Shown here: positions 46,991 to 55,742 of the stretch, in pieces
Position numbering within the stretch: the first letter of the stretch is position 1
Layout of the letters: each line of letters opens with the position of its first letter
Origin: Bacilli bacterium
Lineage (GTDB): Bacteria > Bacillota_I > Bacilli_A > RFN20 > CAG-826
Assembly (NCBI GenBank): GCA_900767605.1
Contig: CAAFZT010000029.1
Location: 860-64,859 of the forward strand
Direction: 5' to 3'
Length of the DNA stretch: 64,000 nt
Made by a program: the position numbers and the translations under genes
Notes under the pieces: model-generated
What the model was told of the DNA's origin: nothing
Databases searched by the model: none
The model's input: the letters and a program-made list of their open reading frames with translations, nothing else

Positions 46991-47722
46991 TCAAATCTTA
47001 GATAATAAATCCAAGGTCCGCAGTTTTACGCCCGTATTCTTTTCTAAATAATGACCAAGGGACAAATAAATGGGTCGACAAGTTTCCCAACCTAAATTCA
47101 CGCGCCCGTAATCGACAAGGGGCGCTTTAAAAATGTAACGATAAATTTTCAAAACCTCCCTCGATACCTTGCCCATGGTTTCAGTCCGAAAACAAGAGGG
47201 GCATACAAATCCGCCTGTATCGAGATCAATGGTTTCGATTTTATTTCTCGCACCGCAGCAAACGCATTCGTCCACATCAAGGCCAATTCCGCCGATTACC
47301 AATAGGTGCGCAAAACAAATTAATCCAACGCAATAAGGGTCGCCCCCCTTTTTAATGGCTTGAAATGCGCCCAATACCCAAGGGAACGCTTCTGCGGCTT
47401 CATCTTCTTGCAAAAAACGCAAAGACAATTCAATGAGTAAATTATCGATGGAAAATGCGTCTAAATTTTCACTTGAAAGCAAAATTTCTACCAAGGAAGC
47501 TTCTTTTAGAGTCGCATTTCCTTTTGAATCTATGGACAAAGAAAACTCACAAGAACTCAACGGCTGTAGCGACATGGCCGATTTGGACGTTATCTTCTTA
47601 ACGCCATGGGCATAAAAACTGAATAAGCCTTCCTTAGACAAGCAGGTAATAACTCCATCGCTTTCTTTGGACGTGGAGTTTCGCAAGACTATCCCGCTTC
47701 TTTTGATCCAATCACTTGTCAT
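46991..47722 (-). CDS. recO: DNA repair protein RecO
   Basis: 243 aa. N-terminal OB-like region and a C4 zinc motif (CVCCG...CPSC). Follows era, as in Bacillus. Confidence 0.85.
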   Translation of the reverse strand: MTSDWIKRSGIVLRNSTSKESDGVITCLSKEGLFSFYAHGVKKITSKSAMSLQPLSSCEFSLSIDSKGNATLKEASLVEILLSSENLDAFSIDNLLIELSLRFLQEDEAAEAFPWVLGAFQAIKKGGDPYCVGLICFAHLLVIGGIGLDVDECVCCGARNKIETIDLDTGGFVCPSCFRTETMGKVSREVLKIYRYIFKAPLVDYGRVNLGWETCRPIYLSLGHYLEKNTGVKLRTLDLLSKI

Positions 47723-48593
47723 TGTACCCTAAATCCATTAAGGCTTTTGGGGAGTTTCTCCAGCCAGGAATGGCTTCAACTTCAATGGTTAGATGAGTGA
47801 CGTGTTCATGCCACATTCTTTCCAATTCATGGCGAGCAGACATCGATATTTTTTTTATCATTTGTCCGCCTTGACCAATCACAATTCCTTTGTGAGCCTT
47901 CTTTTCCACGATGATGGTGGCGGAAATGTTGTAACCTCCGCCTTCTTTGGTGAACTCGTCGATACGAACAGCGCTTTGATGAGGAATTTCGTCAAAAAGG
48001 AAATGCAATAATTTTTCGCGAATCACTTCTTTAGCTTGGTATTCTCGGTCCTTATCGGTCAAATAATCTTTAGGATAAAGGGGTTCCCCTTCCGTGAGAT
48101 AAGGCTCGAGGGCCGCTTTAACCTCTTTGATGCCGAAATTTTCTTTAAACGATGCTTCAATCACCAAAGAATTCGGATAAGCGATTTTAAGTTTTTCTTC
48201 GATTTCCCGAGCTTTTTCCACTTTAATAAGGTCGATTTTATTAAGGACGAACAAAAGTGGGGAATCCGTTTTAATCGAAGCCACAATTTTTAAATCTTGG
48301 TCCAGCGAATCGGAAGACGCGTCAAGAAAGTACAAAATTGCATCCACTCCACGGGAACTTCCAAAGGCAGCACGACGCATGTGGGATTCCAGTTTGCCAT
48401 CCCCATAGTAAATCCCCGGAGTATCTACTAAGACATACTGACGATCCTTTTCCGTCAAAATACCACAGATCGAGTCGCGGGTAGTTTGAGCCCTGGGGGA
48501 AACGATTGAAATCTTTTTTGAAAGTACACAATTTAAAAAGGTGCTTTTCCCCACGTTGGGGCGCCCCATAATGGCGATTGTTCCAATTTTCAT
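47712..48593 (-). CDS. era: GTPase Era
   Basis: GRPNVGKST, DTPG, NKIDL, C-terminal KH domain (VEKKAHKGIVIGQGGQMIK). ATG at 48593 overlaps the cdd stop by 4 nt. The ORF track extends to 48728. Confidence 0.95.
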   Translation of the reverse strand: MKIGTIAIMGRPNVGKSTFLNCVLSKKISIVSPRAQTTRDSICGILTEKDRQYVLVDTPGIYYGDGKLESHMRRAAFGSSRGVDAILYFLDASSDSLDQDLKIVASIKTDSPLLFVLNKIDLIKVEKAREIEEKLKIAYPNSLVIEASFKENFGIKEVKAALEPYLTEGEPLYPKDYLTDKDREYQAKEVIREKLLHFLFDEIPHQSAVRIDEFTKEGGGYNISATIIVEKKAHKGIVIGQGGQMIKKISMSARHELERMWHEHVTHLTIEVEAIPGWRNSPKALMDLGYNDK

Positions 48594-48994
48594 AAATCTT
48601 CTCCTCTGAATGCGAACGGCAAGAGTTCTTTCGCCGTTACGTATTTTGTTTCGTTTTTTAGATTTCCTAGATAAATGGGCGCATCTAGTGGGAACAGTTC
48701 CCACAAGACCTGGCGGCAAGCCCCACATGGAGAACAGGGTTCATCCGTATCGGCCACAATAGCGAGGGAAACAAAATCCTCTTTCTTTTTTCCACGCATC
48801 AAGGCGTGATAGATGGCGTTTCTTTCTGCGCACATGCTAAGAGGGAACGATGCGTTTTCAATGTTGGCTCCACAAAAAACGCTTCCGTCAGCACATTCTA
48901 ATGCCGCCCCTACTGCAAAATGCGAATAAGGGGAATAAGACAAGGCGCGTGCCTGCTTTGCTTTATCAAGCAGCTCTTCCGGGCTTAATTTCAT
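48590..48994 (-). CDS. cdd: cytidine deaminase
   Basis: 134 aa. Zinc motifs CAERNA and PCGACRQ. Confidence 0.95.
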   Translation of the reverse strand: MKLSPEELLDKAKQARALSYSPYSHFAVGAALECADGSVFCGANIENASFPLSMCAERNAIYHALMRGKKKEDFVSLAIVADTDEPCSPCGACRQVLWELFPLDAPIYLGNLKNETKYVTAKELLPFAFRGEDL

Positions 48995-49461
48995 GGGTTA
49001 ATCTCCTTCCAGGCTTTTAAAATCTTTTCTTGAAGAGGAAACATCACTTCTTCTTGTTTCTTTGTCACGTGGTCATATCCAAGCAAATGAAGCATTCCGT
49101 GGACGAAAAGGAAGGAGAGTTCGCGCTCAGGGGTATTGCCAAATTCTTGGGCTTGACGGAGGGCCTGGGGGATGCAAATAAAGATTTCTCCGAGCAAGAC
49201 GGGAACATCATCTCCCCCTACGATTTTTCCCAAATCACTATGATCATCCTCAAAAGCAAAGCTAATAACGTCAGTTACCCGATCTATGCCACGATAATCG
49301 CGATTAATCGTGTGTATTTCTTCTTCTCCGACCAAACTTAGGTCAATTTCATAATTTTTACGAATCGATAAAAGGGAGGCAATCACATTCAAAAGCGATT
49401 CATATTTGCTTTCCCATTCGTCAAATTGGGCATCAAATCGATTATCAAATTCTAATTCCAT
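48991..49461 (-). CDS. ybeY: rRNA maturation endoribonuclease YbeY
   Basis: 156 aa. HGMLHLLGYDH metal motif. Confidence 0.95.
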   Translation of the reverse strand: MELEFDNRFDAQFDEWESKYESLLNVIASLLSIRKNYEIDLSLVGEEEIHTINRDYRGIDRVTDVISFAFEDDHSDLGKIVGGDDVPVLLGEIFICIPQALRQAQEFGNTPERELSFLFVHGMLHLLGYDHVTKKQEEVMFPLQEKILKAWKEINP

Positions 49462-50591
49462 TAATGCTTATCCTCCTTTTTCCTTTCCGCCTTACGCCAT
49501 TGGTAATAGCAGGCCAAATAGCATATCAAAGGAGAGGCCCCATAGGGAATTGCAAAGTAAGAAATAATTCGTCGCTCCTCTGCCGATAAAGAGAAAACAA
49601 CGGAAAGAACAATGCCAACAACGGCAAGCACAAAACTGCAAGCAAAGCCGAATTTAAGAGAAGGGGTCAGTTGGTCGTTGCCGTTATCTTCTGCAATAAA
49701 AGAGACGGGTAGAGCACACAAAAAGGCAAACAGCGCGTTTAATCCAATGGATAATCCAAAAAACAGCGGAGTAACATTTTGAGAACATTTGCAAAGAATC
49801 AAAACACAGAAGGAAAGAGCTTCAAAAAGGAAAAAGAATGCATGATTAACCCAATTTTTCTTGAAGTCATTGGAAATTTCGCTCCAATTGAGCCTCCCAT
49901 TCCTTTTTGCGGCCTGCGAATGTTTTCTATTTGTATCATCTTCTTTTTGGGAGATTGCTTTTGCGTCTTTTTGATTTTCATTTTGGCGGTTGTTCGATTC
50001 TTCCGCGTCTAAGGGCTCGGGGAGAGAGGGGGTTTTTAGCCAAACGGTTTTCAAGTCTTGGATCAAGGATCCTTCTGGCGGTTCTTTATCCCACGCCAGA
50101 TCCCCAATGAGACCATCAAAAGCTTGGGCCAACCGCGTTTTGTCCTCCACGCAACCAATCTCTTTATAAGGGGACCATTCATTTCCAATGTTTACACCCA
50201 ACGAGCGAGGCGTAATTTTAGGAGCATAAATAAGAAGGCGGCATAAAGACATTTGGTCCAGAATTCGTTGTAGAGAAAGCGATTGTTCCAATGCATTCAA
50301 ACAGGAGAAATCCAAGAAAAGAAAATTGGGATTCTCTTGGTTTTTAACTTCTTCTAAGAAAAGGGCTAAATCTACGTATTTCCTTAGAATATAAGCCGAA
50401 ATTGGATTCGAAATGGGTCGGCCATCTAGTGAAAATTCCCCATGCCAGTCAGGTTGTGGATGGATAAAGAAATTGGCAATGGCGCTTGAATCATCGCCAT
50501 ATAGAAAAGTGACTCCCTTTAGCGTTCCACAGAGATGAAACGCGGGACCATTTTCAGCTTCGCGCCAAACAAACCCTTCGAGCATGAGCAT
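49461..50591 (-). CDS. membrane protein with degenerate, truncated ABC-ATPase-like N-terminal domain and four C-terminal TM helices
   Basis: 376 aa. The N-terminal part follows the NBD order, but the ATP motifs are lost: Walker A position LYGDDSSAI, signature ISAYI, Walker B FLFLDF, H-loop YAPK. A charged linker follows, then 4 TM helices. Its stop overlaps the ybeY ATG (TAATG). Confidence 0.6.
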   Translation of the reverse strand: MLMLEGFVWREAENGPAFHLCGTLKGVTFLYGDDSSAIANFFIHPQPDWHGEFSLDGRPISNPISAYILRKYVDLALFLEEVKNQENPNFLFLDFSCLNALEQSLSLQRILDQMSLCRLLIYAPKITPRSLGVNIGNEWSPYKEIGCVEDKTRLAQAFDGLIGDLAWDKEPPEGSLIQDLKTVWLKTPSLPEPLDAEESNNRQNENQKDAKAISQKEDDTNRKHSQAAKRNGRLNWSEISNDFKKNWVNHAFFFLFEALSFCVLILCKCSQNVTPLFFGLSIGLNALFAFLCALPVSFIAEDNGNDQLTPSLKFGFACSFVLAVVGIVLSVVFSLSAEERRIISYFAIPYGASPLICYLACYYQWRKAERKKEDKH

Positions 50592-50623
50592 ATTTTAACC
50601 GATTTTATCGACCTTTGCTTGAT

Positions 50624-51829
50624 TTATTTCCCGTTTGTGCGAACAAAATGATACCAAAAATAGGATGCTTCGTTCCGGTTACTTAAAATTGAGGGCAAAT
50701 AGGACGCCAAATCGTTAATCTGAATAGAAAATAACAGGCAAAGGATCAAATTTTCTAAGTAAGATGATCCCACGAGATTCTGTTTGGTTAAACTGCTGCC
50801 TAAGCAAAACAAAAGGGAAACGAGCAGGACGGTTAAAATTTTAAGAAACCATAAACGAGAATACCTAACCCCCTTCTTTTGGTAGGATTTTTGTTTATTT
50901 TCTAATCCTATTTTGTCGCTCTCTCCCCTTAAAAAATCGTCTTCGTCTTTTTCCACATCTTTCGCTATTTGGGCGGAATGTTTTTGAATAAAACAGAGCA
51001 TAATCAGCAAAACTACCCCCGCAATTCCCAACATCACGCCTTGCCAAGGGCTAGTAAAACTGATGTAGAACAACAACGAACAAAGAATTCCAATTTCACA
51101 GGAAACACGAGGGATTGTTCCAAATATCGCGTTTTTATAAGTGTAATAATGGGTAAATAGCTCTTTGCGTAGCTCAGGATCTTCCTCCAACAAGCCTCGT
51201 TGATATCTCCGATCAAAGACAGACTGGAGATAACGGGAACAAACTAAAAATAGGCCTAAACTCGTTAAACCGACGAGATAAAAAGGCAAAGCAATCCATT
51301 TGGATACTCTTTCTGATAAAAGGAAGCCCATTCCAATCAAAAATACGGACGCGAACGATAATAACATTGGAATCCATCCGTTTTTTACGGAACGAATGTT
51401 TGGCTTGGGGACATCCTTTTTTCGAGACACGACGCCCAAATCCGTTACCATCACAACGCCAGAGAATATCCTTTCAAATCGTCTAATCTTAATTTTTCTT
51501 TTTCCTCTAGAGGGATCCAATATGGTCAAATCTGACTTTGAGGCCTTTACTAAAACACACATATGCTGAAGCCCGTCTTCTTCTAGAAGCACTAGTGCAT
51601 TTTTAGAAGCCAAAAACCTCCAATCATAGGGGCTTCCAACGCGATAGGATCGAAGATTTAGGCCATGCTTAGCTCCGTATTCCTTTATCTCGTTTAGGGA
51701 AGGGGCGTTTTGCTCGGCCTCCGGTTCATCGGCGTACGCCCAATTTCGGTTTTTATCGCGTTTGCATAACAGCATTTTAACGCAGGCATAACCGCATCCT
51801 TTGCTTTGACATTGATAAATAATTTTCAT
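50624..51829 (-). CDS. C39 peptidase domain fused to ABC-exporter-like 6-TM domain (no nucleotide-binding domain)
   Basis: The N-terminus YQCQSKGCGYACVKML has a Gln 6 residues before the Cys. LQHMCVLV and TILDPSRG supply His and Asp. About 6 TM helices follow. The ORF is open to GTG 51874, but that start lies inside the deoC terminator. Confidence 0.65.
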   Translation of the reverse strand: MKIIYQCQSKGCGYACVKMLLCKRDKNRNWAYADEPEAEQNAPSLNEIKEYGAKHGLNLRSYRVGSPYDWRFLASKNALVLLEEDGLQHMCVLVKASKSDLTILDPSRGKRKIKIRRFERIFSGVVMVTDLGVVSRKKDVPKPNIRSVKNGWIPMLLSFASVFLIGMGFLLSERVSKWIALPFYLVGLTSLGLFLVCSRYLQSVFDRRYQRGLLEEDPELRKELFTHYYTYKNAIFGTIPRVSCEIGILCSLLFYISFTSPWQGVMLGIAGVVLLIMLCFIQKHSAQIAKDVEKDEDDFLRGESDKIGLENKQKSYQKKGVRYSRLWFLKILTVLLVSLLFCLGSSLTKQNLVGSSYLENLILCLLFSIQINDLASYLPSILSNRNEASYFWYHFVRTNGK

Positions 51830-51883
51830 ACATACATTTAACGAATAGATTTGCGTTTCCGCGAAAAAATGCACATATGAATC

Positions 51884-51963: not shown

Positions 51964-52620
51964 TTAGAACAGCTCTTTTTCTTTCGTGATGTTAACAGAG
52001 GCGCTGCAACCAATGCGGTTCGCCCCGGCTTCCACCATTTCTTCCACTTCGGACAAATGGTGAATTCCACCGCTGGCTTTTACACCAACGTTTTTTCCAA
52101 CGGTTTCTCTCATAATACGCACGGCATGAACGCTTGCTCCGCCCGCTTTATTAAACCCCGTGCTGGTTTTTACGAATTGTGCGCCGCCACGAACGGAGGC
52201 CAGACAAGCCTCTTTAATTTCCTCGTCGGTTAGAATGGATGTTTCCAAAATGACCTTCAAAGTAGTATCCCCGATTGCTTCCTTAACCCGACGAACTTCT
52301 TCTTCCGTGTAGGCAAAATCGGCCTCTTTCACCTTTCCGGTGTTGATGACCATATCTACTTCTTGAGCCCCTTCATCCACGGCAATAGAGGCCTCTGCAG
52401 ACTTGATTGAGACGCTATTGGCCCCCAAGGGAAAGCCAACGACGGTGCATACCTTCACGTCGCTCCCTTCCAATTCTTTGGAACAAAGAGGGACAAAGCA
52501 GGGGTTAACACAAACGGAGGCAAAGCGATATTGTTTTGCTTCGCTGCACAAAGCGATAATTTCTTTCGATGTTGCCTCTTGTTTTAAAAGGGTGTGATCA
52601 AATAGTTTATTGAATTCCAT
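51964..52620 (-). CDS. deoC: deoxyribose-phosphate aldolase
   Basis: 218 aa. DHTLLK, VCTVVGFPLG, and the Schiff-base Lys context FVKTSTGF. Confidence 0.95.
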   Translation of the reverse strand: MEFNKLFDHTLLKQEATSKEIIALCSEAKQYRFASVCVNPCFVPLCSKELEGSDVKVCTVVGFPLGANSVSIKSAEASIAVDEGAQEVDMVINTGKVKEADFAYTEEEVRRVKEAIGDTTLKVILETSILTDEEIKEACLASVRGGAQFVKTSTGFNKAGGASVHAVRIMRETVGKNVGVKASGGIHHLSEVEEMVEAGANRIGCSASVNITKEKELF

Positions 52621-54231: not shown

Positions 54232-55029
54232 TTAAATCCCTTTATCTATTTTCCTAAAAAACTTGTGTTCATCGAGTTTATTTTTATAGACAAAACTACT
54301 AGATATTAACTTATTATCAACCAGTCTTTTCACAAATTCTTCCTTATTGTTCTCAAAGTATGCATTAAGGACAGGTTCGATTCTTTCCAACATATGGTTG
54401 GTATTTTTTCGATGTAATCCGCGGTCGAACAAAGGAATGGACACCTCAAGTCTCCCTTCTTCGTTTACAATATAAATTTCATAGGAATCGTAGTTATAAT
54501 ACACCGCCTCTCCTTTAACGGTTTTAACCTTTACCAGTTTCGTGAAAAAAGAATTGTAAAGTTCAGGACCGTATGTGTCGAACGGATCAATGAGCAAAGC
54601 TTCAAAATGAGTTAGCAATTTCTTAAAATTTTTATCTTGAAACGAGAAAAAATTATCCGAATATATATTGTTAATAGAACGAGGAAATACGGGGACAAAA
54701 ATCTTGGTGTTCCCATCTTGGAAATAAGGCAAATCGAGCATCTTCTTTTTTATATCCGAGACAATGCATTCTTGGCTAGATTCCACTCCCAATTTTCGAT
54801 CTTCTTTCAAACGTTCCATAAACATCGTTTCGATGCATTCTTTGTTGGATAAAGCGGCAATTAGAATATTTGCTCGAATGATATCGAAAGGTTTGGTGGC
54901 CTTAGAAAAATTCGAATAGGAGGGAATATCCGCTAAAATCCCTGAATTACGGAGAAAGTAGTCCATTGCAGCGCTACGGGAAAACGGAGTGGAGGACTGC
55001 TTCTTTTCTAATTCTTTGAAAAAATCCAT
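54232..55029 (-). CDS. hypothetical protein (no recognised family)
   Basis: 265 aa from the ATG at 55029, which overlaps the rsmE stop as TAATG. The ORF track gives a TTG start at 55065. AT-rich relative to its neighbours. Inserted between rsmE and mtaB. Confidence 0.55.
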   Translation of the reverse strand: MDFFKELEKKQSSTPFSRSAAMDYFLRNSGILADIPSYSNFSKATKPFDIIRANILIAALSNKECIETMFMERLKEDRKLGVESSQECIVSDIKKKMLDLPYFQDGNTKIFVPVFPRSINNIYSDNFFSFQDKNFKKLLTHFEALLIDPFDTYGPELYNSFFTKLVKVKTVKGEAVYYNYDSYEIYIVNEEGRLEVSIPLFDRGLHRKNTNHMLERIEPVLNAYFENNKEEFVKRLVDNKLISSSFVYKNKLDEHKFFRKIDKGI

Positions 55030-55742
55030 TATTTCCTTTTCTCCATCATAGATCCAATAAGGCAAGCTCCGTATAATCCGGCTGTTTCAGCCCTTAGAAT
55101 ACGTTTCCCTAACGATACGATGCGGAATCCCGCCTTTTGGGCTTGTTCCACTTCTGCGGGCGTAAAGCCACCCTCAGGACCGATTACAAATAAGGTGTCA
55201 TCCATTTTCATTTCTTCCAAAGCGACCAAAAGAGGGTCGCCATGAAGGGATTCATTCTCATAGGCGAGGATTTTATTGGGATATGGCAAAACTAATATTT
55301 CGTTCCAGCTTTGATAGGCGGATAGTTCTGGCAAACGTCCCCGTCGGCACTGTTTTGCCGATTCGTTCGCTATTTTTTGGAGCCGTTCCCATTTCGGATC
55401 CTTTTTCACTTTGGGCCGAACCACGCATCGCTCGGTAACGCAGGGATAAAACGAAGTCGCCCCTAACTCCGTCGATTTTTGTACGAGCCATTCAGAATGT
55501 TCGCTTTTTAAGACGCTGAAAGCGATTCCTAGCCGATAAGGCAATTCCCGGCTGGGCAACGCTATTTTCTTTTCAATCTTTAAAGGATAGACGGAAGCAA
55601 CCGTGCATAAATAAACACATCCATCGGCACCTACTTCGATTTCCTCACCGACTTGAGCCCGTTTAACATGAACCAAATGGTGCTCATCTTCAGGGCTAAG
55701 GATTACGCGGTTGTCGACAATTTGACCAAAGAAATGTTGCAT
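55029..55742 (-). CDS. rsmE: 16S rRNA (uracil1498-N3)-methyltransferase RsmE
   Basis: 237 aa. N-terminal PUA-like region (HHLVHVKRAQVGEEIEV). C-terminal SPOUT knot (IGPEGGFTPAEV...LGKRILRAETA). Confidence 0.9.
   Translation of the reverse strand: MQHFFGQIVDNRVILSPEDEHHLVHVKRAQVGEEIEVGADGCVYLCTVASVYPLKIEKKIALPSRELPYRLGIAFSVLKSEHSEWLVQKSTELGATSFYPCVTERCVVRPKVKKDPKWERLQKIANESAKQCRRGRLPELSAYQSWNEILVLPYPNKILAYENESLHGDPLLVALEEMKMDDTLFVIGPEGGFTPAEVEQAQKAGFRIVSLGKRILRAETAGLYGACLIGSMMEKRK

Follow-up and report, generated by a model that had tools for sequence, protein, structure and literature searches.

A C39 peptidase-membrane protein without a nucleotide-binding domain heads the ybeY-cdd-era-recO operon in a clade of uncultured gut Bacilli

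Introduction

Peptidase-containing ATP-binding cassette (ABC) transporters (PCATs) are the textbook example of leader cleavage and ATP-driven export coupled in a single protein. Here we describe two adjacent genes, which we call P1 and P2, in a 64,000-nucleotide stretch of a Bacilli bacterium genome (assembly GCA_900767605.1, contig CAAFZT010000029.1, positions 860 to 64,859; this whole stretch is referred to as the window). P1 encodes a C39 peptidase domain joined to a predicted six-helix membrane domain of the ABC-exporter type, as in a PCAT, and it ends without a nucleotide-binding domain (NBD). P2, which lies between P1 and ybeY in this genome, encodes a membrane protein whose N-terminal domain may or may not be the remnant of an NBD.

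Two other kinds of described protein share parts of this architecture. SbmA has an ABC-exporter-like membrane domain and no NBD, and its transport of peptides is proton-driven (PMC8442886, PMC13316013). HlyB-type transporters carry a C39-like domain (CLD) in which the catalytic Cys is missing and which has no proteolytic activity (PMC6363468). The original prediction for our locus, made by reading the sequence without database searches, was of a split bacteriocin exporter, in which a protease-competent first gene is paired with a dead, truncated ABC ATPase and the pair is wired into a ribosome-maturation operon. Based on the analysis below, we believe that P1 is better framed as a core gene resembling a PCAT without the NBD, and P2 as an optional partner that may derive from an NBD, than the two as an ATPase-dead pair.

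P1 joins a C39 peptidase to an exporter-type membrane domain

Residues 2-129 of P1 match positions 3-128 of the 133 positions in the Pfam Peptidase_C39 profile (PF03412) with E=6.3e-16 and a score of 58.9 bits, where the cut-off is 22. The Pfam scan found nothing else of substance in the protein. That P1 opens with a C39 peptidase was therefore read correctly from the sequence. The same is true of Gln6, the oxyanion-hole residue six positions ahead of the Cys, and of Cys12, His89, and Asp105: their codons are in place, and all four are invariant in an alignment of 20 P1-family sequences, most of which are 20-30% identical to P1. The invariant columns of this alignment include Q6, Q8, G11-C12-G13, H89, and D105-P106. 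When a profile of the 20 members was searched against the PDB, it matched the peptidase domains of LahT (LahT150), PCAT1, and ComA with the His and Asp motifs aligned. The Cys-His-Asp spacing in P1 is 77 and 16 residues, and in ComA (3k8u) it is 79 and 16.

The AlphaFold2 (AF2) model of P1 has a predicted local distance difference test score (pLDDT) of ~75-90 in residues 1-130, and this part of the model aligns with the ComA, LahT, and PCAT1 peptidase (PEP) structures at Foldseek TM-scores of 0.65-0.79 on the target, so that a papain-like fold is predicted. Judging from the alignment, the active site is under strong constraint, and P1 is predicted to have a protease-competent C39 domain.

For the protein as a whole, the AF2 model, which was built on the 20-sequence family alignment, has a pLDDT of 84.8 and a predicted TM-score (pTM) of 0.76. 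Six helices of 23-43 residues were assigned by DSSP, at residues 152-174, 177-213, 218-259, 261-301, 306-348, and 357-396. In a Foldseek search of the PDB with this model, ranks 1-13 are all PCAT1 chains (E=1e-12 to 1e-8), with TM-scores of 0.63-0.66 on the query over ~460 columns that take in both the peptidase and the membrane domain. They are followed by HlyB and then by the membrane domains of McjD, MsbA, IrtAB, TAP, and CydDC (~300 columns, E ~1e-4). About six helices spaced as in an ABC exporter had been predicted from the sequence, and this agrees with the six helices of the model and with the fold that Foldseek finds. The open reading frame (ORF) ends directly after the sixth transmembrane (TM) helix, as had also been noted, at the point where an NBD would begin.

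Outside the peptidase, the most conserved residues of P1 are F205, D206, R221, Y231, K232, E296, E387, Y390, F391, and F395. Based on the alignment and the AF2 model, the conserved residues of the membrane domain fall in the cytoplasmic helix extensions. In ABC exporters these extensions are the contact surface for the NBD, and in PCAT1 they contact the peptidase as well.

P1 is conserved without an NBD and is under purifying selection

Protein searches returned 39 relatives of P1. Except for a few fragments truncated by contig ends, they are ~390-440 aa long and contain PF03412 only, and no NBD or ABC_tran domain was found in any of the 39. The databases name one of them 'cysteine peptidase family C39 domain-containing protein [Mollicutes bacterium]' and others 'hypothetical protein [Bacilli bacterium]'. 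In a scan of one genome per GTDB species, the family was present in 24 species-level genomes, which comprise uncultured Bacilli, metagenome-assembled genomes labeled 'Mollicutes' and 'Erysipelotrichaceae', Candidatus Alloenteromonas, and Enteromonas.

In 36 of 37 related loci, which cover 24 species-level genomes, ybeY-cdd-era-recO follows the P1 gene, and in the 37th the contig ends before that point. This linkage is seen at ybeY identities down to 53%, and the gap between P1 and ybeY is 3-47 nt in 23 of the 37 loci. The position of P1 as the first gene of the operon is thus fixed throughout a clade of uncultured gut Bacilli. The surroundings are conserved too, since the entire region from dnaK to sigA is syntenic in the related genomes. 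The GC content across P1 and P2 (~0.39-0.44) is close to that of their neighbors (0.42-0.47), so there is no island signature, and the original reading that the two genes are not in an islet is upheld by the synteny throughout the lineage.

To measure selection, we calculated the ratio of nonsynonymous to synonymous substitution rates (dN/dS) by the Nei-Gojobori method against four relatives, with dS up to 1.8. The ratio is 0.14-0.26 for P1, 0.19-0.21 for P2, and 0.01-0.11 for ybeY, era, and deoC. At 64-73% identity, P1 and P2 are both still full-length and in frame. Conservation beside ybeY and purifying selection had been named as checks on the original prediction; the first is found for P1 and the second for both genes. 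P1 and P2 are real genes under purifying selection and not a broken transporter.

Junctions between the C39-TM gene and ybeY are not uniform across the related loci. In L042 (4274-5254, minus strand), a 326 aa insertion sequence (IS)-like transposase ORF lies between the two genes, so close coupling of them is not obligatory. A small basic ORF of 100-133 aa occupies the same place in L011 (3175-3477) and L040 (4689-5090), the L040 copy being ~95% identical to that of L011, and in L027 (7122-7604) there is a 160 aa ORF. We considered whether the intervening ORFs of L011 and L027 could be remnants of P2 and rejected this because they have no similarity to the P2 N-domain profile. On the other side of the C39-TM gene, L002 (6517-7915) and also L003, L012, and L014 have a 222 aa protein, an extracytoplasmic function (ECF)-type sigma factor of 164 aa, and rpsU between deoC and the C39-TM gene. 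The junction with ybeY is unchanged in this sub-clade despite these insertions, and the linkage likewise survives a change of the flank in L027. Of the claim that the pair is wired into a ribosome-maturation operon, the conserved embedding in ybeY-cdd-era-recO stands; the wiring itself goes beyond a gene order that an IS element and unrelated ORFs can interrupt.

P2 is an optional partner that may be derived from an NBD

The hydropathy peaks of P2 agree with four TM helices after a charged linker, as had been predicted, and a low-confidence model places them at residues 247-269, 275-298, 310-332, and 338-375. Constraint is highest in this C-terminal four-helix domain and lowest in the linker. 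Close homologues of P2 (70-91% identity) are confined to the genus of the window. A profile search over 1.8 billion representatives found seven more distant relatives, and of the metagenome scans made for further P2 relatives, the one with the A6 alignment found nothing and the one with the A3 alignment added only six loci.

Only in three scattered lineages is P1 separated from ybeY by P2 or one of its distant relatives; in most lineages P1 is next to ybeY without P2. The relatives P0045, P0046, and P0048, which are 19-22% identical to P2, occupy this place in L031, L034, and L035, with junctions that overlap or nearly abut, and L026 has a further P2 analogue there. On rough neighbor-joining trees the P2-bearing lineages are scattered, which suggests that P2 is an old accessory gene that has been lost repeatedly. 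P2 is therefore best described as an optional accessory membrane subunit found in a minority of lineages. The original description of the two genes as a pair holds insofar as both ORFs are genuine; the pair is not obligate, and the P2 family also occurs away from C39 genes.

Whether the N-terminal domain of P2 is the vestige of an NBD core is a question on which, from the sequence comparisons, we are about evenly divided. We aligned the P2-family N-domain profile with the NBDs of E. coli MsbA, CydC, CydD, MdlA, and MdlB using hhalign, and the whole domain aligned in register (P=0.007-0.014). Residues 38-65 correspond to the GxIxxDG strand and to the helix that follows Walker A (P=7.7e-4, with a score of 22.2 compared to 9.4+-1.8 for shuffles), and residues ~82-123 to the stretch from the helix before Walker B via the D-loop to the H-loop strand (P=0.057). 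In this register, G32 aligns with the first Gly of Walker A, the P-loop is about three residues shorter, and the helical subdomain is missing; the invariant D94 aligns with the Walker B Asp (FLFLD), and where the catalytic Glu and the H-loop His would be there are F95 and P124. Only G32 and D94 are conserved among the ATP motifs, and there is no Lys-Ser/Thr of Walker A and no LSGGQ, so the absence of intact ATP motifs that had been read from the sequence is confirmed.

The alternative for P2, to which we assign a probability a little short of even, is that of a membrane protein unrelated to NBDs, which has a small alpha/beta domain and was recruited beside P1 in some lineages and beside Wzy-like proteins in others. 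An NBD origin receives support from the two segments, which are colinear with the NBDs in the correct register; cross-combinations of the N-domain halves with NBD halves are non-significant. Scores for the half-domains exceed 200 of 200 and 199 of 200 column shuffles, sub-alignments that exclude the genus of the window (n=2) give the same register, and each of the five NBDs, taken singly, is aligned in register as well. The strand and helix order of the N-domain model is compatible with an NBD core, at a pLDDT of 41, and the gene is exactly where the coding sequence of an ancestral NBD would be expected.

A number of results weigh against that origin. ABC_tran (PF00005) did not match any of the 11 P2-family members even at E<=10, Pfam and NCBIfam gave nothing relevant on P2, and hmmsearch of the PDB with P2 profiles, including one of the N-domain, returned no ABC protein and spurious matches only. 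The AF2 model of P2, built from a 4-sequence alignment, is unreliable (the pLDDT of 41 given above), and a Foldseek search with it gave only non-significant generic P-loop and AAA+ matches. The hhalign probability is ~5-25% for the NBD matches and ~5% for the whole domain, and in tests with single sequences ycaK, a control without relation to NBDs, scored higher than they did. Two relatives, P0047 (L032 6001-9430) and P0050 (L036 5001-8593), have the N-domain, a long charged linker, and four TM helices, and they are located in polysaccharide-synthesis clusters with no C39 gene present, so the P2 family is not tied to C39 or ybeY loci. Both overlap the start of a 722-724 aa polytopic protein that resembles Wzy/O-antigen ligase and has no Pfam match. 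The 724 aa neighbor of P0047 was considered as a diverged P1 and rejected, as it has no similarity to the P1 profile and looks like a Wzy-type polytopic protein.

An NBD ancestry of P2 is a possible reading, compatible with gene position, order, and register. The claim that P2 begins with a sequence in NBD order finds weak support in the in-register alignments and none in the Pfam and PDB searches. Its identification as a dead, truncated ABC ATPase is not established by weak in-register matches and a compatible order of secondary structure. As a separate candidate, we compared the N-domain with PhoH and rejected a degenerate PhoH, since there is no alignment with the P-loop region of E. coli YbeZ (P=0.32, out of register).

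Organization of the locus

The gene order on the minus strand is deoC (51964-52620), P1, P2, ybeY, cdd, era, recO, glyQS, and dnaG (Table 1), and both P1 and P2 are in the ORF list at the coordinates first reported for them. The P1 ORF as listed opens at a GTG at 51874. Its distant homologues open at the equivalent of the ATG at 51829, so we take P1 to be 401 aa, and the GTG start is probably an over-extension. P1 and P2 are separated by 32 nt, and the stop of P2 overlaps the start of ybeY as TAATG, as was originally reported and as we read at the junction.

Table 1. Coordinates of the features of the P1-ybeY locus in the window.
Feature	Positions	Strand	Basis or remarks
Intrinsic terminator, after deoC and before P1	51884..51923	-	RNA fold and U-run
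P1, C39 peptidase and six-helix ABC-exporter-type membrane domain, without NBD	50624..51829	-	401 aa, ATG start
P1 C39 peptidase domain, residues 1-129	51443..51829	-	Pfam PF03412, PDB profile matches, Foldseek
P1 catalytic codons	Gln6 51812-51814; Cys12 51794-51796; His89 51563-51565; Asp105 51515-51517	-	Codons checked
P1 membrane domain (predicted), residues 150-396, helices paired TM1-2, TM3-4, TM5-6, long cytoplasmic extensions	50642..51382	-	AF2, hydropathy, Foldseek
P2, N-terminal domain, linker, and four TM helices	49461..50591	-	376 aa; ORF, homologues, dN/dS
P2 N-terminal alpha/beta domain, residues 1-135	50187..50591	-	Conserved G32, D94, S96, L120, P124; hhalign
P2 charged, poorly conserved linker, residues 136-245	49857..50186	-	Variable in alignment; dN/dS 0.17-0.44; composition
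P2 C-terminal four-helix membrane domain, residues 246-376	49461..49856	-	Near-invariant within genus; dN/dS ~0.08
ybeY (endoribonuclease), translationally coupled to P2	48991..49461	-	Pfam YbeY in homologous loci
cdd (cytidine deaminase)	48590..48994	-	ATGA overlap with ybeY
era (GTPase)	47712..48593	-	ATGA overlap with cdd
recO	46991..47722	-	11-nt overlap with era

The terminator upstream of P1 that had been proposed from the sequence is borne out by folding: the hairpin has a free energy of -20.6 kcal/mol (z=-5.5, with 0 of 200 shuffles equally stable) and is followed by UUUUUU. It was not picked up by a simple consensus scan because its loop is long. A consensus scan for sigma-70-like promoters between the deoC terminator and the start of P1 (51830-51883) found none. 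For ybeY there is a Shine-Dalgarno sequence, AAGGAGG, 8 nt upstream of the ATG and within the 3' end of P2, and no Shine-Dalgarno sequence was seen in the sequence upstream of P1 or of P2. The PADLOC defense-system models gave no match.

We noted two further points about annotation in the window. The era ORF as listed (47712-48728, 338 aa) is over-extended, and the conserved start MKIGTIAIMGRPNVGKS is at the ATG of position 48593, in an ATGA overlap with the stop of cdd. At 54232-55065, between an rsmE-like methyltransferase gene and an mtaB-like radical-SAM gene, there is a 277 aa ORF without a Pfam family; in the related loci with called genes (L001-L004 and L034), a gene of 264-271 aa fills this slot.

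Proposed mechanism and alternative explanations

The explanation we favor, with a confidence somewhat better than even, is a joint one: P1 is a stable, functional PCAT derivative that has lost its NBD, it acts by the mechanism outlined here, and P2 is an optional addition. By analogy with PCAT1, P1 would form a homodimer in the membrane with the protease on the cytoplasmic face. Its substrates, of which there may be one or several, would be encoded elsewhere in the genome, and P1 is predicted to remove their leader, probably one of the double-glycine type. This would take place without ATP, and P1 might either only process its substrate or also let the product pass through the membrane cavity. 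In the latter case the driving force would be the proton gradient or downhill movement, SbmA being the model. If the N-domain of P2 is an NBD vestige, then its helical subdomain would have been deleted, its Walker A shortened, and its catalytic Glu and H-loop His replaced, and it could dock beneath P1 as a non-catalytic scaffold or regulator.

Apart from the doubts about P2, several results count against this explanation. Pfam ABC_membrane does not match P1, because the sequence of its membrane domain is too diverged, and an hhalign comparison of P1 with five E. coli exporter membrane domains was marginal (P=0.059), with the register correct at TM3-TM4, so that the proposed fold of the membrane domain rests on predicted structure. 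Neither the 64 kb window nor 422 kb of related loci yielded a canonical double-glycine leader ORF, motif scans giving scattered chance matches only; this extends the original remark that no such precursor is adjacent. Nor does any ORF of the window or the related loci combine Walker A with LSGGQ. Given these results, the substrates and any ATPase acting in trans would be encoded elsewhere.

The last point leads to an alternative that we consider rather unlikely, in which the system is a canonical PCAT split in two, and a competent NBD encoded elsewhere docks on the coupling helices of P1 and drives export with ATP. The most conserved membrane-domain residues of P1 are at just the extensions and loops where an NBD usually docks, which favors a distant NBD gene, and the sequence at hand covers part of the genome only. 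On the other hand, an NBD gene in or beside the operon was found in 0 of 37 loci, the sole candidate neighbor, P2, lacks all of the ATP motifs, and to our knowledge the NBD is almost always fused in exporters of this fold. A second alternative, which we regard as improbable, places the function at the level of the operon, with P1 (with or without P2) as a membrane-tethered protease that acts on YbeY and Era or is regulated with them, and that replaces the PhoH/PgpH of Bacillus. The constancy of P1 upstream of ybeY wherever the locus reaches, through considerable ybeY divergence and through the flank changes in L002 and L027, fits this, as do the terminator upstream of P1, the overlaps all along P2-ybeY-cdd-era-recO, and the PhoH-like gene at the same position in E. 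coli. However, P1 evolves far faster than ybeY and era, a transposase gene and unrelated ORFs can separate P1 from ybeY, and with the dnaK-sigA region wholly syntenic the adjacency may merely reflect vertical inheritance. We also know of no C39 protease that acts on ribosomal factors, and a literature search found none.

The order of the two genes, with peptidase and membrane domain followed by a possible NBD remnant, is what would be expected of a split gene, and so a recent pseudogene also has to be considered, that is, an ordinary PCAT gene that a frameshift or a stop codon has split into two ORFs now in decay. We give this almost no credence. The lengths and frames have been kept over the divergence measured above (dS up to 1.8) at low dN/dS, and homologues in 24 species that are 20-30% identical to P1 are all ~400 aa with invariant catalytic residues and no fused NBD; a single intact transporter gene in the relatives, which a recent frameshift would imply, is not seen. 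Returning to the NBD-less PCAT derivative, it can be extended to a fuller history, which taken as a whole we think unlikely. In that history the ATPase of an ancient PCAT was lost, leaving a protease-channel that is independent of ATP. This protein would now be a core component, inherited vertically throughout a clade of gut Bacilli with reduced genomes and co-expressed with YbeY and Era, and would process a conserved cellular substrate and not a bacteriocin, perhaps with proton-driven export. P2 would be a pseudo-NBD subunit with an acquired structural or regulatory role, recruited later to further membrane machines, for example Wzy-like polymerases.

What these genes have in common across a deep clade is that a protease and a translocation domain are kept under selection with the ATPase absent. 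This suggests that the P1 family is an undescribed, ATP-independent variant of a peptide-exporting ABC transporter. Its housekeeping-like conservation implies a substrate other than a strain-variable bacteriocin, and the substrate, once found, could point to a step of maturation or secretion that is new for these abundant, uncultured Bacilli of the gut. If P2 does descend from an NBD, it would be among the few pseudo-ATPase subunits documented for ABC-type machines.

Comparison with known systems

A literature search found no paper on NBD-less PCATs or on a link between C39 peptidases and ybeY. The architecture of a C39 domain with TM helices and no NBD may already be present in domain-architecture databases without comment.

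The slot that P1 (with P2, where present) occupies before ybeY is filled by other genes elsewhere. In E. coli, the phoH-like ybeZ is directly upstream of ybeY, and in Bacillus the genes directly upstream are phoH-pgpH (yqfF). If the N-domain of P2 is P-loop-like, the phoH-pgpH and P1-P2 pairs are alike in consisting of a P-loop-like protein and a polytopic membrane protein. There is, however, no sequence relationship between them, and P1 is of the protease/exporter type and not a seven-transmembrane HD (7TM-HD) phosphodiesterase.

The closest described systems are the PCATs (PCAT1 of Clostridium thermocellum and the ComA, LahT, and CvaB type), which have, like P1, a cytoplasmic C39 domain with Gln, Cys, His, and Asp and a six-helix exporter domain. 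In contrast to them, the P1 family lacks the NBD in every member and has no adjacent double-glycine precursor, immunity, or accessory gene. The P1 gene is conserved, is present in single copy, and belongs to a housekeeping operon, while PCATs are found in variable bacteriocin or quorum-sensing loci. Because an NBD is part of what defines a PCAT, we class P1 as a PCAT-derived NBD-less variant and not as a PCAT. HlyB, the representative of the CLD transporters, is among the structural matches of P1, and these transporters share with P1 a C39 fold fused to an exporter membrane domain. P1 differs from them in keeping the Cys, His, and Asp and in having no NBD, and since Cys12 is retained and invariant, P1 has a catalytic-type C39 domain and not a CLD. 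The best NCBIfam match of the P1 peptidase region is NF045998, the Mbov_0121 family of Mycoplasma (E=9.7e-15, residues 44-167). Members of that family are ~673 aa and have an NBD, and P1, at 54 bits, falls far short of the cut-off of 500 and is outside the family. As the Mbov_0121 type comes from a wall-less or low-GC lineage that is related, P1 could plausibly descend from a PCAT of this type.

SbmA and BacA, the SbmA-like peptide transporters (SLiPT), resemble P1 as a functional analogy only, in that an ABC-exporter-type membrane domain works without an ATPase. SbmA imports peptides and has no peptidase domain, the SbmA_BacA Pfam profile does not match P1 at E<=10, SbmA is not in the top 50 Foldseek matches of P1, and any coupling of P1 to protons would be purely by analogy. 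The relationship between P1 and the PCATs has a parallel in peptide import by SbmA, which has no NBD, compared to BacA/Rv1819c, which has one. P1 is a natural experiment on whether a peptidase and a membrane domain can work together without ATP.

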